Source: a virus
DNA length: 50,279 bases
Direction: 5' to 3' (one strand)
IMG/VR virus record: IMGVR_UViG_3300027533_000005
Coordinates: 1-50,279 of that record
The notes under the pieces are model-generated. The model worked only from the letters and a program-made list of their open reading frames with translations. It searched no databases and had not been told where the DNA came from. Shown here piece by piece: positions 1 through 50,279 of the stretch (positions are counted from its first letter, which is position 1; each line of letters begins with the position of its first letter). The translations under genes were made by a program, and so were the position numbers.

Positions 1-127
1 GATCTTCATGGTGGGGGTAATTCAGACTGTGCGAGAAACCTTCGACCCCTCGTGCGCGCTTCCAGAGGTTCGGAGGAAGCCAAGCAGTCTGCGCCATCTC
101 AGGAGTCGCACCAATGAGTGCGCCTGC
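1..127. repeat. Terminal direct repeat copy 1 (identical to 50153..50279); circular-assembly overlap or short terminal redundancy
   Basis: Bases 1-127 (gatcttcatggtggggg...gagtgcgcctgc) read identically at 50153-50279. Confidence 0.9.
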
Positions 128-700
128 TCCAGCCGCAAGATACTTCTCTGGAACTAGATTGGTTGGATCAGTTACTACATCAAGACCAAGACCTAGCATC
201 CCACGCTGTACAGGGTTAGCTCCACTCAGTGTCTCTTCAGGGGCGCGCTTTGTAAATTCCTGTGACGCTGAAGTAGCTCCTAAGCCTGCTTCATATCCTG
301 ACTTGACACCTTTGAGACCTTCCCAGACTACATCAGACAGAGGCTTCTTCTCACTACCTGTACTGGTAGCGTCCATCAGTGCGCCAAACGCGCGCCCTCC
401 ACTTTCCTGAGTTGCACCAAGAGCGCCAGCTATTTTACCCCCAGTAGACTTAGCCTGTGTTTTGATTGGCTCAACAGCCGATCGACCGACTTGCTCTGCA
501 ATATCTAGAGGTGCGGGAATGTGCTCATACCAAGGCTTCTCGACTGCGGGAGGCGCCACAGGAAGATTTACGTCGCCACGCGTTACCTTGCGCGGACGAT
601 TCGGATCGGTTGCCTCAGAGTACCAGTCGCGCGCACCTGATAGTGCGCGAATCGCTCTGTCGTAGAGTCCGCCGTATCCGTAGTCCTCAGAGCCAGCCAT
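1..700 (-). CDS. 5' segment (201 codons, ATG at 700) of the junction-spanning ~1397-aa virion-associated ORF; continues as 50279..46659 (1..127 duplicates 50153..50279)
   Basis: I checked every minus-strand codon from 700 down to 98: no stop, in frame (603 nt) with the Met at 97 = 50249. The ATG at 700 overlaps the TAA of the upstream ORF (TAATG). Product is Gly/Ala-rich and protein-like (MAGSEDYGYGGLYDRAIRALSG...). Confidence 0.7.
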   Translation of the reverse strand, partial: MAGSEDYGYGGLYDRAIRALSGARDWYSEATDPNRPRKVTRGDVNLPVAPPAVEKPWYEHIPAPLDIAEQVGRSAVEPIKTQAKSTGGKIAGALGATQESGGRAFGALMDATSTGSEKKPLSDVVWEGLKGVKSGYEAGLGATSASQEFTKRAPEETLSGANPVQRGMLGLGLDVVTDPTNLVPEKYLAAGAGALIGATPEMAQTAWLPPNLWKRARGVEGFSHSLNYPHHED

Positions 701-969
701 TATTGTGGTAGTTTGCCAGCCTTGCTATATTCTTCCTGGACTTTCGTCCAGTATTCCTTCTGAGCGTCGGGGAATTGAGCTTTCTCTCTGGCCTCTGCCA
801 TCCGTCTTTTCTGTCCTATGGATAAGTTCTGTCTGAGAGGTTTCATCTCGGATTCATCAGAACCTGGACCCGAACTTTGAACCTGGCTCGTCGGTAAAAC
901 CCGAGCCAAAAGGATTGCGTATCCTTCTCGCTCCGACTTTAGCAACTGTTGGAGGTCCTCGATATGCAT
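700..969 (-). CDS. Small hypothetical protein (89 aa, start taken at internal Met after TerL stop)
   Basis: ORF track 700..1137. The upstream part overlaps TerL, so I used the Met at 969 (MHIEDLQQLL...). Stop overlaps the next start. Confidence 0.4.
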   Translation of the reverse strand: MHIEDLQQLLKSEREGYAILLARVLPTSQVQSSGPGSDESEMKPLRQNLSIGQKRRMAEAREKAQFPDAQKEYWTKVQEEYSKAGKLPQ

Positions 970-1051
970 CTTGTGCGCCGCGCACGCTGCACAGACGTTC
1001 GTTTGTAGAATATATGGCCTTTTGAACCAGGACATAAAACCTATAGCCACC

Positions 1052-2728
1052 TCAGTGAGCCACATAATGAGGATATCGGCCGCGCCGTGGACGTTTGTGA
1101 TACATCTTAACAGGACGGTCGAGTTGTTTCTTCTCACGGTCCAACTTTTCCATCCTACGGTAGAATCCAGTCTGATCTCCAGAGGTTTCTAGGTATTCCA
1201 GAACTCGGTTGAGCTTCTCTCGCTGGGCTGTTACGTTAATTGACTTCTCAATCCAGCGATGTACCTCTTTGATTAGGTATCTGGCCCCATCATAAGGGTC
1301 ATCTCCATCAAATTCCATGACGTCTTCCATTTTGACGTCGTCGTAGATACAAAGTGGGATGACATCCTCGAGCGCGCCAAGATTCTTGTCGACATAGTAC
1401 CGCGAATCCTTGAGAACTTTGAGTTTCGGGAGGTTATCTTCGGGAGGTTCCGGCTCGAACATAGCCGAATACTCGTTGAAGGCGATCTCTCCGTAGATTC
1501 TGAAGATTCTGGCCGCTGTTTCGACATTGTATCCGTCTTTTGGTAGAATCCTGGGAGGCTTTGGCTTCCATCTGAGGTATTCGTGCATCAACATCTTGCC
1601 GCTGATGCGATCATTGTCCGCCAAAGTCACCGGGAATCGTAATTCCACCCCAGTTGGATTCACGACGTCCATGAATTGCTGTAAAATCGAGAGTTGGTCC
1701 CCTTCTTTTCGCTTCGCGCTGGGATCGATCACCACTGAATCGATGATTTCGTCCTGTGATAGCCTTACGAAGTCAGAAGCCCACTCCACAATCTTGCGAT
1801 TCTGCTGTCCGTACTGACGATATATGAATGCTTGTCCATTTGGCGCGACTGCAGCCCACGCAATATACGTCATTGCACTGTGACCCCAATCGATTGCTGC
1901 GATCCTCGGCCAGAAAGCTGGAATCTTGAACGGCTCAACCAGATGGAGTGCGTTCTCTGGCTCTCCAGCGAAGTGCTCGAACCGCCATTCGTCGAAGACT
2001 TGCCCGGTGAATGTCCACCAATCACCCTCTAGCTTGGCTCTTTGCTCAGCGATGGGCAGCAAGCGAAGACGATTGATGTAATTCGGGTCAGCCTGCATCA
2101 AGAACGGATTATCCGTTAGCTTGGCAGGTATGAAGATCCTATATGATTGCGCTATTCTATCGTGGATCTTGGTGTATCCTCCCCTAGCAGGTTCGACAAA
2201 GCGACGGCGCACCCAAGCATGGCCGACGTTACCAGGGTTAGTAGCACTACGCACCACTGCAGGAAGAGTAGAATCCGCAGTACGACATCTTGACGTGAGA
2301 TAGACATACTGGAATTCTTCAAATGCCGTGAGCTCATCGAAGCCTATGTAGTTGTACTCCGCCGTGTCATGGCTTCTAGCATCTTCAGCTCTAAGCATAT
2401 AGCTGAACTGAATCCAGGCTCCCGACGGAAATGTCCAGCGATGTTTTGTGTCGTTGTAGGTTGCTCCGAAAAGTGGGTAGATGTCTCTCGATCTGGGGAT
2501 AAGAGATTCTTCCAGTTCTGGGAAGGTTCTCCTGAAGACGATTCCTTTGAAGGTGCCAAAATTGTACCAGCCTTTTACAATGGGCAGCATCAGGAGGATC
2601 TCTGACTTTCCTCCACCTGCCGCGCCCCCGTACATCGCCTCGAAGATCGAATCTGGAATACGGATGAAGTCTGTTTGCCTTTTGGAAGGCTCCCAGACCT
2701 TATTTCCGTTTACTACCTGAAAGGGCAT
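1052..2728 (-). CDS. terL: Terminase large subunit
   Basis: 558 aa. Walker A-like GGAAGGGKSE near the N-terminus, size and C-terminal nuclease-type acidic motifs, position at the head of the packaging/portal genes. Confidence 0.85.
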   Translation of the reverse strand: MPFQVVNGNKVWEPSKRQTDFIRIPDSIFEAMYGGAAGGGKSEILLMLPIVKGWYNFGTFKGIVFRRTFPELEESLIPRSRDIYPLFGATYNDTKHRWTFPSGAWIQFSYMLRAEDARSHDTAEYNYIGFDELTAFEEFQYVYLTSRCRTADSTLPAVVRSATNPGNVGHAWVRRRFVEPARGGYTKIHDRIAQSYRIFIPAKLTDNPFLMQADPNYINRLRLLPIAEQRAKLEGDWWTFTGQVFDEWRFEHFAGEPENALHLVEPFKIPAFWPRIAAIDWGHSAMTYIAWAAVAPNGQAFIYRQYGQQNRKIVEWASDFVRLSQDEIIDSVVIDPSAKRKEGDQLSILQQFMDVVNPTGVELRFPVTLADNDRISGKMLMHEYLRWKPKPPRILPKDGYNVETAARIFRIYGEIAFNEYSAMFEPEPPEDNLPKLKVLKDSRYYVDKNLGALEDVIPLCIYDDVKMEDVMEFDGDDPYDGARYLIKEVHRWIEKSINVTAQREKLNRVLEYLETSGDQTGFYRRMEKLDREKKQLDRPVKMYHKRPRRGRYPHYVAH

Positions 2729-17771: not shown

Positions 17772-17974
17772 TAAGGTCTCCGGGCTGACTATTAGAGCGT
17801 GTTCACCCACGCAAGCGTCGATCTAGTACAAAGCCTTTCAGCCGTGTGGTCCCGAGCGGTTGGAGATTCGGGACAACTTTTGAGCCGGGGGCCAAGTGGA
17901 TGGTATGTGGGCAGTGGCACAGCAGTAACCATCTCGTAACGAGGAAGCCATACCCCGGTATTTTTGGAGGCCTC

Positions 17975-19243
17975 ATGAAGCTAGCGATTGAGACAATACA
18001 AGTCAAGGAAGAACCTATTGACGAGGCCGAGGTTCAGAACCTAGCTGAGTCTTTCAAGGAACGCGGTCAGATACACCCCATAGCTGTTCACCAAATGAAC
18101 AGCAGCGTAGTCCTTATTACAGGACGCAAGCGTCTTGCAGCAGCCAAACTACTGGCATGGCAAGAGGTTGACTGTGCAATCTACGAGAACCTCACAGAAA
18201 ATCAGATAGAAGAGATTGCGCTGCACGAGAACCTGAAGAGGTACAACCTGCCTTGGACTGAGGAAGTCCTAATGGTCGAGAGGTTGCATCTGCTCAAGCA
18301 GCTCATCTATGGCAAGCCACCTGAACAGGGTGGCGGACATCAAAAGACAGGCTGGAGTGTCAGAGACACCGCAGCCGCGCTCCAGCAGGCACTCGGTAAA
18401 ACCTCCCAAGACCTACAACTAGCTAGGCATGTTAGGCTCGACCCTTCGCTGTCTAAGGTGAAGGACAAGCGCACTGCAATGCGTCTGGTCAAGATCGCAG
18501 TGAAGCGATTCGACGACGAAGAGCAGGCAGGTGCGGCCGATTTCGGGATGAAGATGAACCAACTGTTCTGTGGTGATTCGGCAGTCGCCATGAAACACTT
18601 CCCAGACAATACCTTCCATGCCTGTATCACTGATCCGCCTTGGCTCAGATTCTTTGATTCAACTTTGCGACTCGATGAACGAACAGTGCCCGTATTTCGG
18701 GAGCTGTATAGGGTCATGCGTTATGATAGTTTCGTCTACATCTTCTGTGGATTTGACGATTATCACTACTACGCTGGGCGCACAGAGCCAGACCCTATAC
18801 TACCGAGCGAGACCAGAAGAATACCTGGAGTCCTTGAAGACATCGGGTTCCGTGTGGCAAAAACTCCTCTCTTCTGGAGAAAGCTCAAGAGCTTGTCCCG
18901 TAGAGGCGTTACTCCATGGGAGCACGGACGGGATTTCGAACTCATTACGGTTGCTGTCAAAGGGAATCCAGTCCTGAAAGGCGGGACGCAGGATACCTCA
19001 TTCTTTGACGTGGACGCCGTCCCACCTGTGAAGCTCATTCATCCCAACGAGAAGCCTGTTGACTTGATGAAGAAGCTCCTCGATGAATGCACTCATGAGG
19101 GTAATGCAGTCATCGACCCCTTTGCAGGTTCCTTCTGCGTGCCAGACGCTTGCAAACAAATGAAGCGTTACTGGATCGGAATAGATAGGGATCAAGAATC
19201 GTATTCGAGAGGTTGCAAGCGTCTAGGAATTGAGGAGCAGTGA
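17975..19243 (+). CDS. ParB-N (ParB/Srx) domain fused to a beta-class N6A/N4C DNA methyltransferase
   Basis: GRKRLAAAKLL (ParB box II-like). Motif IV ITDPPW precedes motif I VIDPFAGSF (beta-class order). Start taken at the ATG at 17975 with a GGAGG SD. Confidence 0.8.
   Translation: MKLAIETIQVKEEPIDEAEVQNLAESFKERGQIHPIAVHQMNSSVVLITGRKRLAAAKLLAWQEVDCAIYENLTENQIEEIALHENLKRYNLPWTEEVLMVERLHLLKQLIYGKPPEQGGGHQKTGWSVRDTAAALQQALGKTSQDLQLARHVRLDPSLSKVKDKRTAMRLVKIAVKRFDDEEQAGAADFGMKMNQLFCGDSAVAMKHFPDNTFHACITDPPWLRFFDSTLRLDERTVPVFRELYRVMRYDSFVYIFCGFDDYHYYAGRTEPDPILPSETRRIPGVLEDIGFRVAKTPLFWRKLKSLSRRGVTPWEHGRDFELITVAVKGNPVLKGGTQDTSFFDVDAVPPVKLIHPNEKPVDLMKKLLDECTHEGNAVIDPFAGSFCVPDACKQMKRYWIGIDRDQESYSRGCKRLGIEEQ
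18081..18105. repeat. 25-bp palindrome family member 5 (TAGCTGTTCA-ccaaa-TGAACAGCag), inside the ParB-N coding region
   Basis: Perfect 8-bp arms; encodes IAVHQMNS. Confidence 0.85.
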
Positions 19244-42836: not shown

Positions 42837-44108
42837 CTATCGGGCGCTCCGCTTCGGTGTGTACTTCCCATTCAGAAAATCCATGTCGCTCGTCTTGTTC
42901 CAGTTAACATCTCTTGCCGAAGGAGTTTTGGCGGCGGAACTAGACGCGCTTCGTCCGGATGCCGGAATGTTTGTACGTTTGACCTGCGGCGCACCAGTGA
43001 TTGCTTTTGTTGGATGACTAACTTGTAGACCTGCCTCGGCACGTAGCTTCTGTCTGACTGAAGGAATCAGAGTTTTCGCCCCTCGCAAGTAGGCGTTTAT
43101 GATTTCTTTGCGAGTCTCTTTTGGAAACCCAGTCGATTCTGCTTTGCGCCACAGTGCGTTCATCTGACGAAGATGACGTGTATCTTTAGCTAGAAGTTGA
43201 TCGACCTCTTGAAAAATAGAATCCTTCAACGTCTTCTTGAGGAAGGGGCTTAAACTCTTGTCATTGTCTATCCCCTTCGCGATTTCTTTGATCGTTTCTT
43301 CACGACCTTCGCCGTAGCACTCGTTTGTGAAGTCTGCGGCTTTCTCTTGCCAGAAGGCTTGACGCTCGGATTTGACCCTTTCTTCGGCCTCATTAGGCAC
43401 CTCCGGCTTTCGCTCAAGGTCGGGAATCTCGGGCTTACCGTAAAGATACTTTGCAATATGTAGGGCGGCGTTTCGGAGATTAGTATTCTCAGTTCCTGCT
43501 GCATCTCGGATGGCGCTCCGTAGCACATCATTGACAGCTGGCAGCGTAAGTTCCGCGTAAAGCTCCATCGACTTCTCTTTGATGGTGGGAAGGAAGTCGC
43601 GCGCGACCGCTTTGAAGGACTCCTTATTGCTCTGCTCGACGTCATTTAGAAGCTCTTTGATAGAACCACCAATGATGGTGTTCTCCAGACGATTGAAATA
43701 GGTTGCGCGCTGCGCGGCATCTCGGGCATCTTCCGGTGTCGCAAATATCTCACTATACGCACGGTCATTGCGTATCGACTCAGCAAGCTTCGGAAATTCC
43801 TTGAAGATAGCCGGATACTTGGTCTTAATATCCTTAAATCTAAGTTGACCCTCTGGAACTTCAGCATCATCTGGTTCTGGCTCGACCTTAGGTTTTTCTT
43901 CTTCCTCGGCCTTGACCTCTTCCTCAGTTTCAAAGGTGACCTCTCCAGGTTCCTCAGCGACAGCCTCTTCCTCTTCGGCTTCTGCTGCCTCAGGCTCTTC
44001 GTTAAGGATCTCTAGATCACTCTTTCCTTCAGAAGATTCAGAAGATCCAGTAGGACCACCTAGTGCGTCTGCGTCGTCGTACAACAACTGAAAATCTTTA
44101 AGGAACAT
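42837..44108 (-). CDS. Scaffolding protein
   Basis: Highly acidic N-terminal (EEPEAAEAEEEEAVAEEPGE...), helical, lies between portal and capsid. Confidence 0.6.
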   Translation of the reverse strand: MFLKDFQLLYDDADALGGPTGSSESSEGKSDLEILNEEPEAAEAEEEEAVAEEPGEVTFETEEEVKAEEEEKPKVEPEPDDAEVPEGQLRFKDIKTKYPAIFKEFPKLAESIRNDRAYSEIFATPEDARDAAQRATYFNRLENTIIGGSIKELLNDVEQSNKESFKAVARDFLPTIKEKSMELYAELTLPAVNDVLRSAIRDAAGTENTNLRNAALHIAKYLYGKPEIPDLERKPEVPNEAEERVKSERQAFWQEKAADFTNECYGEGREETIKEIAKGIDNDKSLSPFLKKTLKDSIFQEVDQLLAKDTRHLRQMNALWRKAESTGFPKETRKEIINAYLRGAKTLIPSVRQKLRAEAGLQVSHPTKAITGAPQVKRTNIPASGRSASSSAAKTPSARDVNWNKTSDMDFLNGKYTPKRSAR

Positions 44109-46662
44109 TTGCTATGCCTCTCGGTGCTGGAATGTTTTCAGTATCCTTAGCTTTGGGTGGCGAGCCTGACTGGGGCGGCTGACCACCTTCAGGCGGCGGC
44201 GCGCCCCCTTGCATCATCATTTGCTTCATCATCTCCATCTGCTCCATCTCTACATGATTCTGCAAATGGGCGACAACATTCATATAGCCACCAGGATTGG
44301 TCATCTTCTGATCCATCCCGATCTCTGATACACACCATTCCTTGAGTACCGCGATGTGAACTTGGTGCTGGTCGATGTCCTGTTCCACCGGAACAGTCGC
44401 CTGTAGGATTGGCGTACCGTCCATGGGATTCATCCCAACCTGCTGTGGCTGACCAGTGATCAACTCGTAAATCTCATATAGCTGTTTGCTTCTATCCGAA
44501 TCACCTGGGACAGTCAGCTCCGTAATACCTATCAACTCCGCGACCGTGTGTCGATTCTCAGGGTGGAACAGAGCCTCATTAAGAGCCTCGTTATTCAGTT
44601 CAACAAGGCGCATAATGATGTCGCGCTTCTGAGACCAGGCTAGAGGAAACTGCTCTGAAAGTTCAGGCTCGACCTGACCAACCTGACCAGACATCTCCGC
44701 CTTACGAATCCATACATTCACGAAGGAGTTCTTGCCCTGTGACTTTACAATCTTCTCGTCCGTCTTCATGTTCTTAGCATAGCACTTGACTGCTTTGCTC
44801 TCAAGATCGGACCAGAAGAATGAAATCATCTTGTAGATGATCTGCAATCTCTGAAGGGCTTGCGCCCGACTCATGGAGTATTCGGAGGCGGTGTCGCTGC
44901 CTCCTTGCATTGATCCTCCGTAGACGGACGGTACAGTTCCAAGTACAAACTGACCAGCGGTCTGTAGATCATCATGGAATTCTTTGTGCTCTCTGGAAAG
45001 AAGAGCCGCACGATTCGTATAGAAAGCCGCCGAGATATTTCCTCCGACCGGTGCTTTGACAGGATATAGACTCCCAGGAGAAACCTCCATCGATCTATAT
45101 TTTTGTAGGTCGATGACACTAGAATCAACGAACGTCTCAGGGATTCCGTGTCGTATGGTCTCGACAGTAAGCTGGAATACTTCATTAGTCATCTCTTGAA
45201 TAGGTACGAGAGGATTAGCATAAGGCTGACCGTGGACACGATCCAGGATAGGATCAACAGACACAGTCCAATACTCGTCCATATCCTCGTCGTTAACTTC
45301 GGCCAGGACATCATTTATGTAGATAGCTCTCAAACCTGAGGGGAACTGGGACTTGAGCGCAAGCACACGCTCATCATCCGACTTCCCAATCTTGTTAAAC
45401 ATCCACGGCCTGAGCCAGATTTGTCGACAGGTGCAAACATCTGCATCATCATCCGTCTGAACAATAGAGGGGGCGCGCGCCCATCTGTCGTATCTTTCCG
45501 AATCCGCCGTTGGCACGATTTTGTCAGCGATATGAGGGAACTTCTCCTGCATCTCAGCGACGTCGTGCTCATCGTTCAGGATCAGATATCCCGACTGTTG
45601 CAGAGTGCGCGCCCGTGGGAAAATCTGGACATTGGTTGCTCCGTATAGTTCAATGATCTGCCGTGACTTCGCGACAGTCTCTTCCCAATCTAGTTCTTGA
45701 GTAGGCTCTTCTTCTGTCTCAATCATAGGAGCTACGTTCGCCCCACAGTTCGGACAAATCTCCGCGTTCGGTGGAGGAGGCTCCATCATTCCTGGCTGCG
45801 CCAGGACATCTTCCTCAGGAGGAGGAATCATCGCCTCATCAGGTAAGCCTTCCAGACCCATCGCTTCAGGAACAGGAGGCTCAATCGGCATTCCCATCTC
45901 CGCAGGCATATCTTGCTCCATCACAGTCTCTACTGGAGGGGGTTCTACTGGAGCCTCTGCCTGCGGATAGGCGCTGTTCTCGATCGTCGTTGCTGCACCT
46001 TCAGGGACGGGCATTTCTTCGACGGGCGCTCCACCGAGTTGGTCCGCAAGCTCCCCGGTGTTCATCGGCTGAACAGCTAGGTTCTCACCACATTCGGGGC
46101 AATATCCCACCTTGTTCTTGATCATTCCCTGACGGAAATGTTGAACAGTTTCTGTACCATACTTGCTGTTCTGGTCGTTGAACGTATATGCAGCTATGAC
46201 GCCCTGATTGTATAGAAGGCCAATAGCCTTCATAAAGAGGAACGGAGCTTTATTGTGTTTGCGTATTAATTCAGCGAGGCGTGTGTAAGCCTGAGCGGTA
46301 TAAATGTCTTCAGCCTGGTCTGCATCATTTGGATAAAAGCGAGTTGCTGGCAGAGACTGTGAGATTGCAGAGATAATGACTTCTCCGTGGGCTTTGTAGA
46401 CGTTGACGATTTTGTTCTCGATGTCCGCCTCTTCTGCGTAATCATAATCATCCCCTTCGGTGCTGCTGATAAATCTCCAGTCGTGCGCAACCTCAGAGAA
46501 GTAGATGTTTTGCAGACCTTCCCAGAAGTACTCGTTACGCTTGAGAACTTTCATCATCCGGTCGCGAGCGAACTGGTCCCTTGAATCTATCTGCAATACC
46601 AAGGAGTCAAGAGCTTGCTTCAGCTCAGGCGCGAGGATTTCGTCTTCAGCGTTATTCGTCAT
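44098..46662 (-). CDS. Portal protein (854 aa) with a Cys4/Pro-Glu-rich insertion
   Basis: Position (after TerL and the large ORF, before the scaffold) and size. Its ATG overlaps the stop of the upstream ORF (ATGA). Confidence 0.6.
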   Translation of the reverse strand: MTNNAEDEILAPELKQALDSLVLQIDSRDQFARDRMMKVLKRNEYFWEGLQNIYFSEVAHDWRFISSTEGDDYDYAEEADIENKIVNVYKAHGEVIISAISQSLPATRFYPNDADQAEDIYTAQAYTRLAELIRKHNKAPFLFMKAIGLLYNQGVIAAYTFNDQNSKYGTETVQHFRQGMIKNKVGYCPECGENLAVQPMNTGELADQLGGAPVEEMPVPEGAATTIENSAYPQAEAPVEPPPVETVMEQDMPAEMGMPIEPPVPEAMGLEGLPDEAMIPPPEEDVLAQPGMMEPPPPNAEICPNCGANVAPMIETEEEPTQELDWEETVAKSRQIIELYGATNVQIFPRARTLQQSGYLILNDEHDVAEMQEKFPHIADKIVPTADSERYDRWARAPSIVQTDDDADVCTCRQIWLRPWMFNKIGKSDDERVLALKSQFPSGLRAIYINDVLAEVNDEDMDEYWTVSVDPILDRVHGQPYANPLVPIQEMTNEVFQLTVETIRHGIPETFVDSSVIDLQKYRSMEVSPGSLYPVKAPVGGNISAAFYTNRAALLSREHKEFHDDLQTAGQFVLGTVPSVYGGSMQGGSDTASEYSMSRAQALQRLQIIYKMISFFWSDLESKAVKCYAKNMKTDEKIVKSQGKNSFVNVWIRKAEMSGQVGQVEPELSEQFPLAWSQKRDIIMRLVELNNEALNEALFHPENRHTVAELIGITELTVPGDSDRSKQLYEIYELITGQPQQVGMNPMDGTPILQATVPVEQDIDQHQVHIAVLKEWCVSEIGMDQKMTNPGGYMNVVAHLQNHVEMEQMEMMKQMMMQGGAPPPEGGQPPQSGSPPKAKDTENIPAPRGIANVP
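46055..46079. repeat. 25-bp palindrome family member 7 (ccggTGTTCA-tcggc-TGAACAGCTA), inside the portal gene
   Basis: 6-bp perfect arms; encodes LAVQPMNT on the minus strand. Confidence 0.75.
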
Positions 46663-49600
46663 TTACCTGTCCAGAACTTCAACAGATCTTTTTCTAGATC
46701 CAGGAAGCGTTGCTTGGCAAGACCCTTGAGATGGCCCTGACCGGAACGCTCCAATCCGTCTGCTATCTCAGCACTGATTGCGTTAGTGTTCTGATACATC
46801 TTAAAAGTCGTTTGCTTAATAGCAGCATTGATGTCGGCCTCACTTAGCTGAGGCAACTCACCCTTCTTATAGAGCTTTACGATATCGTTGTAAATCTGGT
46901 CGTAGTATCCCACCCCGCCAGTAGGGTTGTAATCTGGATGCAGCTTATTGCTGGCGTAATTCTTGAACGCGCGCCCTCGATCAATCCCGACAATTCCGTT
47001 GGGAGTTCGTAGGAACTGCGCACCGTGAGCATCCATATTTCCCGTGAGCCAGTCTACAGGATGATTTCTGATTACGTCTCTAAGCTCTTCAGCAGTAAGC
47101 GTCTTAGGGTCAACTTCCTTCAGGGTCGGCCAATTCATGTTGTTTCCGACCGCAGCCTGCATCGTGCCTGTCTTACCACCCATCTGTGTTACTTCTATCT
47201 TGATGGGATGCAAGCCTGCCAGATTAGCAACCTTGTTTGCAGCAACTTCCTGGTCTGCGAAGTAAGCTGGATTGGCTTCCTTGAACAGATAGTCCTGACC
47301 GTTCTTCGTATAAATGTCCTTGTTCTTCGTACCACCAAGTATATCCTCGGCGTCTTTTACCTTGATCTGGTATCCTGTGTCAGCACCAGTGGGCGCCGCA
47401 CTCTTAATACCAGTAGGACCTTGAATCAAATCCTCAATAGGTTTAACTTTAGGACTACCTGATATCCAGCCACCATTCGGCTGTTGCTTCATGTATTGCG
47501 TGACGAACGGGTATGACGAAGCGTCTGCCTGGAAGAACGCGAGCTGTAACTTAGCAAAGTCGGAAGGGTCCATGCCGACCTTGTCGGCCTTTTTCACAAG
47601 TTCATCAGCTACTTGTTGCGGCGTAAGTTTGCTCGATCCTTGGAGAAGCGAGCCAATCATGTCATGATTGAAAAGCTCTGTAGCAAGATCGATGTCTCTC
47701 TGATCAAAACCTTCCTTCTGTAGAATGTCCTCTATAATAGGAGTAGTGAATGAGTGCTGCAGAGTCTTGTCACCGCTAGCTATAGCTTGCGGCTTCCCGA
47801 TGTCATGTAGAGGGAGCGCAAGATTCATTATAGCTTCTACATCCATCCCTGAGCGATTAGAGATGTCTGCAAATTCCTCCGAAGTTAGCTGGGTCTTCCA
47901 TTGCTTGAGCACATCCTTTGTGTGGGACTCGATGCTACCCATCTCCGTCCCACTGTGCTTGGCAAAGTTCTCTGCAATCTCTGGATAGGTATTCTTCAGA
48001 TAATCTAAACTGCCGTGAGTATCTAATGACTTGATCGATTCCTTGCCAAGAGGATCAAGAGCCTTAGGTAGAGGGACATTTTCAAATCCCTCAAAACCTT
48101 TGGGAAGAGCTGATGGAAGTTCTGCTGGAGCTGCGACAGGTCCTGGAGCCTTGACGAGCTTTGGCTTCGCGACAGGTGCCTGTCTTGTAGCACCACCCAC
48201 GAACGTATCGAAATCTATCGTGCCAAGATCTATATCTTCAGGTGTTCCTGCTTCCTCCATCTTACTGATGGTCTGGAACAAATCAGCATCTTCATACGCG
48301 AGTTTAGACTTCAATGCAGGATGCAGATCCTTCCATGCCATCATGACATCTTCAGGATCAGCGTTAGTATCGTGGAATAGATCTACGAATCCTTTATACT
48401 GTGCGTCATAATCGACAGGAGCTTCGACCGTTGGTTCTGCTATCGCCGCATGAGCCTCAAACGATGGATCGTGGGGCGCCCAATCTAATTCACTGGCCCT
48501 GGGATGGACGGAAAGAAATTCATCCACCTCAGCCTGGGAATTAAATGTTCCAACAGTCTTACCAGTTGTTGCATTGAATACGTCGATCTTACCAATATCC
48601 GGTGCTTCAACGTCACCGAAAGCTGCACCAGTAGGAGTCGGTGGAGAATCAACTGTATCTCCCTTGAGCTTCATGTCCCAGAGCTTTTGGACTTCCTCGG
48701 CTGCTTCGTAATGACTTGCTGACCCAAGGTATTCTATTGCAGCGAGGTGCAGTTCCTCTGGAGTTGTGCCAGGCGTGACCTCTTTCAATTCGTATGGAAG
48801 CTTGACTCCAGCCTCCTCAAAGATGTTATCCAAGTCCGCTATATGCTGTTGCATCGTAGCTGGACGATTTACATCCGTCGCGGAAGTTGTCACTCCCTGA
48901 TAGACATGAGGCTGCTCTGCTATAGCAGCTTCCGACATTTGAAGATATTTCTGTGGGTCTGTCTGCGAGAGTTGTAACTTCTCAGCATCAGACATATCCG
49001 CCCAGGTCTGTGATGCCGGACCTGCTGGAGCTTGGCTCGTAGGAACTGGAACATCGGCAGGACGACCAGACTCCCACTGCTTGACTGCAGCAAGCTTAGC
49101 CTGCTCGGTTTTGGTGAGGTCACGTCCCGCAGCCGCAAGCTCCTTGAGAGTTCCTTGCTCGGTTATCGAGATAACCTTACCCTTGTATGTGGGCGCGCCC
49201 TCCCAGGACTTTGGAGGTTTCTTCGCAGTAGGAACCTCATTCATATTTGCAGCCGCCCACGACTCAGCTGCAGATACTTGAGAGGGTGGAGGAACTGGAG
49301 GAGGTTGAACTACAGCAGGACCAGCAACATTACCAGGAGTTGGAGCTGACACTCCACCGGGAGCATCCGATGGAAATACTCCCTTAAAAGTCCCACCACC
49401 TTCCTTTGGCATCCCGGCTGGAGCAATCTTACCTTGCTTCCAAGGAGTCGTCAGTCGATTCTTCTGTGATCCTACAGGTGCGAATAAAGTCTGTCTTGGG
49501 TCGAAGGCCATCGACCCTGACTTAGTATCTTGGGGAGTACCAACTACATAATCTGTATAGTGTATTCCACCGAACTCGCCTGTCACGCTGGGTTGATTGA

Positions 49601-50279
49601 GCGCGGCTGAGCCATATCGCTTCTCGCCTGTACTACTCAGTGCTTGACCACGAGAACCCTTGACCTTGACATGAGGACCGAAGTCCTGAGGATAACTCAG
49701 TAGTCCATTCAAGCGATCGATGGCGTCTGTTGCTACAGGGTCCATCTTGAGCTTTTGGTAGTATGCCCCAAGTTGTTCCGGTGTAGCCTGACCAGACCTG
49801 ACGGCCGCATGTGTTACCGCACTAGGACCCTCGGCGTAGTGTCGTTGGTCGTTGAATGCTTTCGTAAGAGTCTTGATGTAATCCTTATCCTCAACAGGAT
49901 CTAGCGATTTGATAATTACATCGAAATCTTCCTTCGGAACGGGCGCGCCTCGAACATCCAGAATCTTTGTAGTTTCTGGGAAATCAACTGGTATATGAGT
50001 ACCACCAAGATAACTCTTATTCGATTGTCCTGTTGGTGGCTTACCTGCCTGACGAGCCTGTTTGGCTTCCTTTGGAGTGTAGTATCCTGCATGACCAAAT
50101 CGGCCTAGCACATCTCCAGAGGACGTAGTACCAAATCCTTTATTGAGGACTAGATCTTCATGGTGGGGGTAATTCAGACTGTGCGAGAAACCTTCGACCC
50201 CTCGTGCGCGCTTCCAGAGGTTCGGAGGAAGCCAAGCAGTCTGCGCCATCTCAGGAGTCGCACCAATGAGTGCGCCTGC
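46659..50279 (-). CDS. 3' 1206 codons of the junction-spanning ~1397-aa ORF: HD-type phosphohydrolase motif plus C-terminal PI3/4-kinase-like/atypical kinase-like motifs
   Basis: The ORF is open to the window end. HD motif ...SHTKDV...LALPLHDIGKP...NHD (His codon at 47805-47807). Kinase-like YLFKE, HPVDWLTGNMDAHGAQFL and GIVGIDRGRAF. Confidence 0.7.
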   Translation of the reverse strand, partial: AGALIGATPEMAQTAWLPPNLWKRARGVEGFSHSLNYPHHEDLVLNKGFGTTSSGDVLGRFGHAGYYTPKEAKQARQAGKPPTGQSNKSYLGGTHIPVDFPETTKILDVRGAPVPKEDFDVIIKSLDPVEDKDYIKTLTKAFNDQRHYAEGPSAVTHAAVRSGQATPEQLGAYYQKLKMDPVATDAIDRLNGLLSYPQDFGPHVKVKGSRGQALSSTGEKRYGSAALNQPSVTGEFGGIHYTDYVVGTPQDTKSGSMAFDPRQTLFAPVGSQKNRLTTPWKQGKIAPAGMPKEGGGTFKGVFPSDAPGGVSAPTPGNVAGPAVVQPPPVPPPSQVSAAESWAAANMNEVPTAKKPPKSWEGAPTYKGKVISITEQGTLKELAAAGRDLTKTEQAKLAAVKQWESGRPADVPVPTSQAPAGPASQTWADMSDAEKLQLSQTDPQKYLQMSEAAIAEQPHVYQGVTTSATDVNRPATMQQHIADLDNIFEEAGVKLPYELKEVTPGTTPEELHLAAIEYLGSASHYEAAEEVQKLWDMKLKGDTVDSPPTPTGAAFGDVEAPDIGKIDVFNATTGKTVGTFNSQAEVDEFLSVHPRASELDWAPHDPSFEAHAAIAEPTVEAPVDYDAQYKGFVDLFHDTNADPEDVMMAWKDLHPALKSKLAYEDADLFQTISKMEEAGTPEDIDLGTIDFDTFVGGATRQAPVAKPKLVKAPGPVAAPAELPSALPKGFEGFENVPLPKALDPLGKESIKSLDTHGSLDYLKNTYPEIAENFAKHSGTEMGSIESHTKDVLKQWKTQLTSEEFADISNRSGMDVEAIMNLALPLHDIGKPQAIASGDKTLQHSFTTPIIEDILQKEGFDQRDIDLATELFNHDMIGSLLQGSSKLTPQQVADELVKKADKVGMDPSDFAKLQLAFFQADASSYPFVTQYMKQQPNGGWISGSPKVKPIEDLIQGPTGIKSAAPTGADTGYQIKVKDAEDILGGTKNKDIYTKNGQDYLFKEANPAYFADQEVAANKVANLAGLHPIKIEVTQMGGKTGTMQAAVGNNMNWPTLKEVDPKTLTAEELRDVIRNHPVDWLTGNMDAHGAQFLRTPNGIVGIDRGRAFKNYASNKLHPDYNPTGGVGYYDQIYNDIVKLYKKGELPQLSEADINAAIKQTTFKMYQNTNAISAEIADGLERSGQGHLKGLAKQRFLDLEKDLLKFWTGK
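50153..50279. repeat. Terminal direct repeat copy 2 (identical to 1..127)
   Basis: Exact match read by eye. Confidence 0.9.

Follow-up and report, generated by a model that had tools for sequence, protein, structure and literature searches.

Two computational descriptions of phage-encoded kinases are the closest precedents for the protein reported here. Iyer et al. (Iyer, Burroughs, Anand, de Souza and Aravind, 2017) described a distinct clade of kinases in the polyvalent proteins of phages and prophages (PMC5512222). The kinases of this clade carry a conserved Gln in the N-lobe's final strand, have a reduced C-lobe and occur mainly in prophages of the Verrucomicrobia-Chlamydia group and of Bacteroidetes (PMC5512222). 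Benler et al. (2021) reported that the 'Gratiaviridae', gut phages assigned to Bacteroidetes hosts, encode a kinase of the HipA family between their portal and major capsid genes (PMC8008677). Fusions with MuF, portal and protease domains have been interpreted as head packaging and injection (PMC5512222, PMC9503650), and NUDIX and ADP-ribosyltransferase (ART) domains fused to MuF or portal proteins have been interpreted as head-packaged, injected effectors (PMC9503650). Phage protein kinases with established roles are very few, and those usually cited are T7 gp0.7 and 933W Stk (PMC8008677). Here we describe a kinase-like domain at the C-terminus of a giant protein encoded by the IMG/VR virus record IMGVR_UViG_3300027533_000005. 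The whole stretch of 50,279 nucleotides that was analysed is referred to as the window.

We consider it probable that the C-terminal ~245 residues of the giant protein are a competent kinase-like domain nearest to the HipA-type Ser/Thr kinases, and that this domain is the last module of a 1397-residue head-operon protein that is packaged, injected and phosphorylates a host target. The domain fits both the polyvalent-protein kinases of PMC5512222 and the structural-module HipA-family kinase of PMC8008677, the clades being matched by their descriptions. Like the former, the family of the window domain occurs as a module of giant multi-domain phage proteins together with MuF, ADP-ribosyltransferase and peptidoglycan hydrolase domains, and has the Gln in the N-lobe's final strand (Gln1031 in the numbering used below). 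The C-lobe, reduced in the published clade, is shortened but present in the window domain. The published clade and this family are both found in Verrucomicrobiota prophages and in a Bacteroidota-type context, and action on host proteins after injection is predicted for the published clade (PMC5512222). Unlike that clade, which is described as closer to Ser/Thr/Tyr kinases, the window domain finds its best matches among HipA-type kinases. The Gratiaviridae kinase, compared by its description, is likewise a HipA-like kinase in the head-gene module of uncultured phages (PMC8008677). It adjoins an AAA ATPase and a glycosyltransferase, whereas the window kinase is the C-terminus of a giant protein, lies in the interval between terL and a portal-like gene and stands beside an HD domain. 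A first-pass annotation, made from the letters of the window, had known of no kinase-like domain fused to an HD domain in a protein encoded at such a place. A kinase in a giant protein of the phage head module does have precedent (PMC5512222, PMC8008677); the pairing of an HD domain with the kinase was not found described in the literature.

The elements of the kinase domain are given below. Residue numbers are those of the 1196-residue open reading frame (ORF) of the window, and the addition of 201 converts them into those of the true 1397-residue protein.

46662..47399, minus strand: kinase domain, window-ORF residues 951-1196, true-protein residues 1152-1397
47319..47339, minus strand: Gly-rich loop L-G-G-T-K-N-K, proposed counterpart of the HipA P-loop VAGAQEK
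47268..47291, minus strand: YLFKEANP, with the ATP-binding Lys990 (47280-47282)
47010..47063, minus strand: catalytic loop HPVDWLTGNMDAHGAQFL, with Asp1073 as the base, His1075 at D+2 and Gln1078 at D+5 (Asn in most kinases)
46965..46997, minus strand: DFG-like loop GIVGIDRGRAF, with the metal-binding Asp1090

Three of these elements had been pointed out in the first-pass annotation, namely a candidate ATP-binding Lys in YLFKEANP, a catalytic loop and the metal-binding loop GIVGIDRGRAF. All three were verified by translation of the minus strand at the claimed site, and the reported spacing of 15 residues was found between the start of the segment flanking the D-A-H-G-A-Q core and the start of GIVGIDRGRAF. 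The Gly-rich loop at 47319-47339 is a fourth element. Conservation was assessed in an alignment of 149 representative homologous domains, to which the following counts refer. Lys990 and Asp1073 are invariant (149/149 each), and Asp1090 is present in 148 of the 149 sequences. Around the catalytic loop, Asp1066 is found in 145 sequences, Trp1067 in 146 and Asn1071 in 122. Position 1075 is occupied by His in 129 and by Lys in 20 homologues. The Gly-rich loop has Gly973 in 141 of 146 sequences and Lys977 in 113 of 147. Gln1031, placed in strand E96-102 of the predicted model, is conserved in 141/149. The motifs fall on the best-conserved alignment positions of a large family, and their occurrence therefore goes beyond chance.

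The position D+5 of the catalytic loop deserves separate consideration. The replacement of the usual Asn by Gln had raised the suspicion of a divergent kinase or a pseudokinase. The substitution is real, and the suspicion of a pseudokinase is not supported: 79 of the 149 homologues carry Gln at position 1078 and 69 carry Asn, and the ratio of nonsynonymous to synonymous substitution rates (dN/dS) is about 0.1. Since Gln and Asn alternate across the family, Gln1078 is one of two normal family states and not damage or decay. All 16 close clade members, which come from viral contigs, retain the five catalytic residues (Lys, Asp, His, Gln, Asp). Within this clade the domain-wide dN/dS amounts to 0.08-0.16 (Nei-Gojobori method), and the least saturated pair, with a dS of 0.36, gives 0.085. 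This shows that the kinase domain is under purifying selection. One close relative, P0001 (contig L001, 9272-9901), has Asn in place of the metal-binding Asp (VNRGRAF) and a catalytic loop DAHGAN with Asn instead of Gln. The P0001 gene is separated from its upstream part on this contig, and the sequence may reflect either true variation or a faulty assembly.

The structure of the kinase domain was predicted with AlphaFold2 from an alignment of 25 sequences. The model has a mean predicted local distance difference test score (pLDDT) of 88.9 and a predicted template modelling score (pTM) of 0.86, with disorder confined to the first 20 residues of the linker. It shows a five-stranded N-lobe with an alpha-C-like helix, the catalytic loop, the DFG-like loop preceded by the strands E149-152 and E155-158, and a C-terminal helical bundle of ~75 residues, which is shortened but present. 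The structural features of the protein-kinase-like (PKL) superfamily are found: the two-lobed fold, the beta-3 Lys, the catalytic loop in its Gln variant and the Asp equivalent to that of DFG. Structure prediction with a Foldseek search had been proposed as the check on the kinase assignment, with a fold unrelated to kinases as the outcome that would speak against it. The kinase assignment passed this check, as the best 50 matches in the PDB are all protein-kinase-like enzymes. They are led by HipA of Shewanella and E. coli (best E=2.7e-5), CtkA of H. pylori and RIO1, and further matches are actin-fragmin kinase (AFK), HipT, PI3K-gamma, mTOR, MavQ and an aminoglycoside phosphotransferase, those to PI3K-gamma and mTOR having E-values of about 2e-3. 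Among predicted viral structures, the best match is gp16 of Mycobacterium phage Onyinye, a 1340-residue protein named 'ADP-ribosyltransferase' (E=1.6e-10). It is followed by a 1201-residue 'portal protein', which is a portal fusion, and by phage proteins named in UniProt after the PI3/4-kinase catalytic domain.

At the sequence level, the proximity to HipA is seen in two separate parts of the domain. In the catalytic loop, hhalign and hmmsearch against E. coli HipA aligned QWLIGATDGHAKNF residue for residue with DWLTGNMDAHGAQF, which makes Asp1073 equivalent to D309, His1075 to H311 and Gln1078 to N314. In the N-lobe, domain residues 41-95, which contain the Gly-rich loop, match positions 3-62 of the HipA_C profile at E=0.094; the correspondence of the Gly-rich loop to the HipA P-loop was read off the E. 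coli HipA sequence and is not a significant alignment. The Gly-rich loop with the Lys strand and the catalytic loop therefore both point to HipA. Together, the fold and sequence matches bear out the roles assigned to the three motifs, as ATP-binding Lys, catalytic loop and metal-binding Asp. With HipA, HipT and CtkA (HipA_C, PF07804) the window domain shares the Gly-rich loop and Lys segment, the D-x-H-x-x-N/Q loop and a metal-binding Asp following two short strands. It differs from them in having Gln for Asn and in being a fused module of a phage structural-operon protein rather than a toxin-antitoxin gene. The PI3/PI4 (PF00454) and Fam20 (PF06702) kinases belong to the same superfamily and resemble the window domain in the catalytic loop G-N/D-x-D-R/A-H and in the D-x-G loop after it. 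Unlike these kinases, the window domain has no helical or C2 accessory domains, and in place of the G-D-R-H-x-x-N and D-F-G motifs of PI3/PI4 kinases it has N-M-D-A-H-G-A-Q and I-D-R-G.

The matches to curated families are marginal. The C-terminal 266 residues of the window protein reach 12.8 bits with HipA_C (E=0.094; cut-off 30.5 bits) and E=0.1 with Fam20C, and have no match to PI3_PI4_kinase (PF00454; gathering cut-off 27.1 bits) at E<=1. When 25 family members were scanned with Pfam, HipA_C was matched by 15 (best E=1.6e-7), Fam20C by 6, PI3_PI4_kinase by 4, LepB_N by 2, and HipA_2 and ABC1 by one each; every one of these families consists of kinase-type enzymes. Only P0014 exceeds the HipA_C cut-off (32.6 bits), and the PI3_PI4_kinase matches of the relatives remain under the cut-off with 17-20 bits (E 0.0019-0.006). 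The window domain alone finds nothing in PHROGs or NCBIfam and only noise among PDB sequences, and the family profile finds among PDB sequences only non-significant matches to loops of Fam20B and Fam20C. The Pfam scan of the window gave no match to HipA_N or Couple_hipA, the N-terminal domain of HipA. There is no HipB or HipS antitoxin partner either, the next gene being the portal-like gene. Assignments as a PI3/PI4 kinase proper and as HipA proper were both rejected, as the window lies under both Pfam cut-offs. Because these cut-offs are missed and the HipA N-terminal domain and the antitoxin are lacking, the domain was not filed as a member of HipA_C or PI3_PI4_kinase; it is a separate family of the PKL superfamily, nearest to HipA. 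Of the original description as PI3/4-kinase-like, the kinase fold stands, and the relationship is closer to the HipA-type Ser/Thr kinases than to the PI3/PI4 lipid kinases. The structure paper on Fam20C reportedly listed HipA among its nearest structural relatives, which would account for the mixed weak matches.

The gene of the kinase-bearing protein had to be corrected. The listed ORF, on which the first-pass annotation relied, extends over 46659..50249 on the minus strand and encodes 1196 residues. Positions 1-127 of the window are an exact duplicate of positions 50153-50279. From this 127-nt terminal duplication it follows that the window represents a complete genome, circular or circularly permuted, of 50,152 bp. 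When the frame is read across the circular junction, it stays free of stop codons until position 724, with the first ATG at 700 on the minus strand, and a protein of 1397 residues results. The 1196-residue ORF is incomplete and lacks the first 201 codons because the linearisation splits the circular genome at this place. The full-length homologues P0003, P0006 and P0007 align from about residues 1-4 only with the 1397-residue form. The linearisation likewise cuts any other gene close to either end of the window. The giant gene is composed of two parts:

98..700, minus strand: true N-terminal 201 codons of the giant gene, with the ATG at 700, joined to the main body via the 127-nt terminal duplication
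46659..50279, minus strand: main body of the giant gene, with the stop codon at 46659-46661, continuing over the circular junction

The kinase family is large. An exhaustive HMMER profile search over 1.84 billion representative proteins returned 1020 representative clusters at E<=1e-3 and 529 at E<=1e-10, and most of the matches are internal segments of phage or prophage proteins of 1000-6000 residues. A word-indexed protein search gave two relatives with the single sequence and six with a profile. One motif pattern was found in public collections at 142 places in species genomes and at 297 in viral contigs. The species genomes include Desulfobacterota, Acidobacteriota, Verrucomicrobiota, Armatimonadota and Gammaproteobacteria. 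With Desulfobacterota, Acidobacteriota, Armatimonadota, Gammaproteobacteria and mycobacteriophages, the family is much wider in taxonomy than the clade of PMC5512222. Contig L002 (10001-10588; 12242-20588) carries a fragment of an HD-kinase gene a few kb from chromosomal genes of Bacteroidota type (GldB lipoprotein, HupE/UreJ, TIM), a neighbourhood suggestive of a Bacteroidota host, of a prophage remnant or of a chimeric assembly. The family is associated with MuF proteins: among 44 full-length homologues, the companion domains are Phage_Mu_F in 15, the ADP-ribosyltransferase exoenzyme domain (ADPrib_exo_Tox) in 13 and SLT in two, and one relative has an XkdF-type protease. In P0014, P0016, P0021 and P0034 the kinase occurs in two tandem copies ~250-300 residues apart, both significant, and P0014 and P0021 end in a lytic transglycosylase. 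No second, degenerate kinase copy was found in the window protein.

Among cultured phages, the domain is confined to mycobacteriophages (tblastn, 30-33% identity, E down to 1e-16). Gp54 of McProf (BK061309.1; L003 4633-8190), labelled a 'minor capsid and ADP-ribosyltransferase fusion', directly follows the portal gene and contains a full kinase copy at residues 473-733 (family profile E=1.3e-86). The kinase copy is unannotated in McProf, Onyinye and the related mycobacteriophage minor capsid/ADP-ribosyltransferase proteins. In these MuF-ART fusions (McProf gp54, Onyinye gp16) the same kinase domain stands beside the portal gene (gp54) and is internal, between MuF and the C-terminal ADP-ribosyltransferase. 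In the window protein it is C-terminal and follows the HD domain, with neither ART nor MuF detected. A jackhmmer search from the N-terminus of McProf gp54 gave no match among 150 homologues.

The genes around the giant gene belong to a head module:

700-1137, minus strand: small ORF between terL and the giant gene, with a weak match to a tail-assembly-chaperone PHROG (E=0.012)
1052..2728, minus strand: large terminase subunit (terL), phrog_979, E=6.4e-45, upstream of the giant gene in the same direction
44098..46662, minus strand: presumed portal of 854 residues, named from its size and its position before the scaffold and major capsid protein genes

The location of the giant gene between terL and portal had also been claimed. 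The match to phrog_979 supports terL, and the portal is presumed from size and position. The stop codon of the small ORF overlaps the ATG of the giant gene by one base, and the true start of this ORF probably lies downstream of the terL stop. The ATG of the presumed portal gene overlaps the TGA of the giant gene as ATGA, which suggests co-translation of the two genes. After the 854-residue gene, a gene for 423 residues with an acidic N-terminus and a gene for 434 residues follow on the minus strand, the latter with a weak match to a major head protein (phrog_14242, E=8.6e-5). The order terL, small ORF, giant protein, portal-like gene, scaffold and major capsid protein is conserved in four related contigs (L085, L091, L096 and L099), in which the giant gene encodes 1223-1579 residues. 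Searches of Pfam, PHROGs, NCBIfam, PDB sequences and cultured phages gave no homologue of the presumed portal. The protein contains zinc-ribbon-like CxxC motifs around residues 186-198 and 297-310, and roughly residues 205-300 form a low-complexity insert rich in Pro, Glu and Met. Elsewhere in the window, 17846-19243 on the plus strand encodes a 465-residue protein that combines the N-terminal domain of a ParB-like nuclease with a DNA methyltransferase (phrog_3264, phrog_67).

Directly upstream of the kinase, the giant protein carries a second enzyme domain:

47445..48062, minus strand: HD-superfamily phosphohydrolase domain, window-ORF residues 730-935

The model of this domain is all-helical (pLDDT 90.0) and presents the H...HD...D metal-binding motif. 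Among 20 homologues His47, His86-Asp87 and Asp134 never vary, and His103 and Asp180 hardly do. Its fold matches in the PDB are weak (best E=6.9e-3) and comprise the HD part of a tRNA-processing enzyme, HD hydrolases, phosphodiesterases, a dGTPase and SAMHD1. Pfam HD matches the window at E=0.047, under the cut-off, and the PADLOC Cas3b HD model matches window-ORF residues 762-821, the region of the N-terminal motif, at E=4.2e-6. This HD family has no Pfam model above cut-off. Stand-alone homologues of ~250 residues (P0156-P0168) occur in Bdellovibrionales and other bacteria, many with signal-peptide-like hydrophobic N-termini. As a neighbour of the kinase, the HD domain is restricted to the nearer relatives of the window. 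A NUDIX domain occupies the same slot directly before the kinase in P0009 (NUDIX 224-326, kinase 354-621) and also in P0012 (NUDIX 1128-1231, kinase 1304-1562), whose N-terminal region is common to the window protein. Two unrelated phosphohydrolase folds are thus swapped beside the same kinase in sister lineages. HD or NUDIX as a neighbouring module is not mentioned in PMC5512222.

We propose that the giant protein would be built into the procapsid alongside the portal and would leave the capsid with the DNA at infection. In the new host, the Gly-rich loop and Lys990 of the kinase would bind ATP, Mg2+ would be held by Gln1078 and Asp1090, and Asp1073 would act as the base in the phosphorylation of a host target. 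By analogy with HipA (GltX), HipT (TrpS) and the T7 kinase, the likeliest target would be a Ser/Thr residue of a protein. The adjacent HD phosphohydrolase may be a second effector that acts beside the kinase. The fold, the conserved catalytic residues, the purifying selection, the conserved gene order and the association of the family with MuF proteins are direct results of the analysis; packaging, ejection and the nature of the substrate are inferred. Packaging rests on gene position and homologues, because searches of the window protein revealed no MuF domain.

Several points weigh against this proposal. The query-normalised TM-scores to solved kinases are only about 0.45-0.52, and over the best 50 PDB matches they range from 0.3 to 0.52. 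MuF (PF04233) has no match in the window protein, the recovered N-terminus included, and neither MuF nor another known domain was found in the N-terminal 500 residues of the giant protein. No immunity gene follows the kinase domain, unlike in the case of classical MuF toxins. In the subclade of the window, five well-conserved positions carry residues other than those of the family consensus (His1072Met, Lys1091Arg, Gln1093Arg, Asp1101Asn and Asn1110Thr), so that its activity or specificity may differ from that of the family. These five states recur in the eight closest viral relatives, with slight variation at 1110. A protein substrate is not established by the kinase-like fold, which is also that of lipid, sugar and small-molecule kinases and of AMPylases. 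No experimental study of any family member was found in the literature.

The last points lead to the question of the substrate. An active kinase of the same fold might phosphorylate a lipid, a sugar or precursor of the cell envelope, a nucleotide or a nucleic-acid group; we regard this as possible, if unlikely. Such substrates are known for PI3/PI4 kinases, MavQ, LepB, the xylosylkinase Fam20B and aminoglycoside kinases. In favour of this explanation are the weak Pfam matches of the relatives, with PI3_PI4_kinase in 4/25, LepB_N in 2/25 and Fam20C for the window domain and five others, and the presence of PI3K-gamma, mTOR, MavQ and an aminoglycoside phosphotransferase among the fold matches. 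A non-significant alignment also shows a resemblance of GNMDAH and IDRGRAF of the window to GNMDRHHYE and LDNGRGF of Fam20C. The module next to the kinase is in every case a phosphohydrolase of nucleotide type (HD or NUDIX), and lytic transglycosylases occur in a few relatives. However, Ser/Thr protein kinases (HipA, CtkA, HipT, RIO, AFK) give the best matches by fold and by profile, every match to a lipid or sugar kinase lies under the curated cut-off, and no membrane- or sugar-binding element was identified in the protein. The kinase might instead be active late in the producing cell, where it would alter phage or host proteins in the course of assembly or prevent superinfection, as Benler et al. 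suggested for the Gratiaviridae kinase, and not be injected at all. The place of the gene in the late structural operon and the lack of a detectable MuF domain agree with such a role, and for the HipA-family kinase between portal and capsid genes a late, immunity-type function has been argued (PMC8008677). We hold this explanation to be improbable, as MuF is the main companion of the family, with a portal and a prohead-type protease in single cases, and as a 1397-residue protein translationally coupled to a portal-like gene is typical of packaged proteins.

It is very improbable that the domain is a pseudokinase or structural module in which the fold is kept for assembly, ATP sensing or protein binding and phosphotransfer has been lost. 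This explanation could draw on the Gln at D+5, on the five subclade departures from the consensus near the active site and on the Asn that replaces the metal-binding Asp in P0001. Yet a residue present in more than half of the aligned members (79/149) is no lesion, the window and its 16 nearest relatives retain the Lys, both Asp residues and the His or Lys, and the subclade substitutions are themselves fixed and conserved. The low dN/dS shows that the protein is constrained but does not by itself show this for catalysis. A pseudokinase was rejected as the leading explanation in view of the Gln/Asn alternation in the family and the retained catalytic residues, and the injected, competent kinase remains the reading that we prefer. 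An extension of it concerns the neighbouring phosphohydrolase. The kinase and the upstream HD or NUDIX domain might be coupled into a two-enzyme injected effector directed at a single nucleotide-linked pathway of the host, an idea that we put forward as distinctly speculative. The kinase would, for example, disable an aminoacyl-tRNA synthetase, a defence component or another protein of the host, and the HD or NUDIX domain would destroy the alarm nucleotide that is triggered, for instance (p)ppGpp or a second messenger of immunity. In that case, the exchange between HD and NUDIX would reflect selection for a shared function.

This kind of protein is already known from computation (PMC5512222, PMC8008677), and the family, whose proteins probably enter the cell together with the DNA, is uncharacterised by experiment. 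New here are a clear additional member, the correction of its gene model and the alternation of HD and NUDIX beside the kinase. The window offers a compact example for cloning, with a C-terminal domain that has clear boundaries and named catalytic residues, and the HD or NUDIX neighbour is a concrete lead to the pathway of the kinase. If the kinase is active and injected, the family would represent a widespread route by which phages reprogramme host proteins within the first seconds of an infection, ahead of all phage gene expression.

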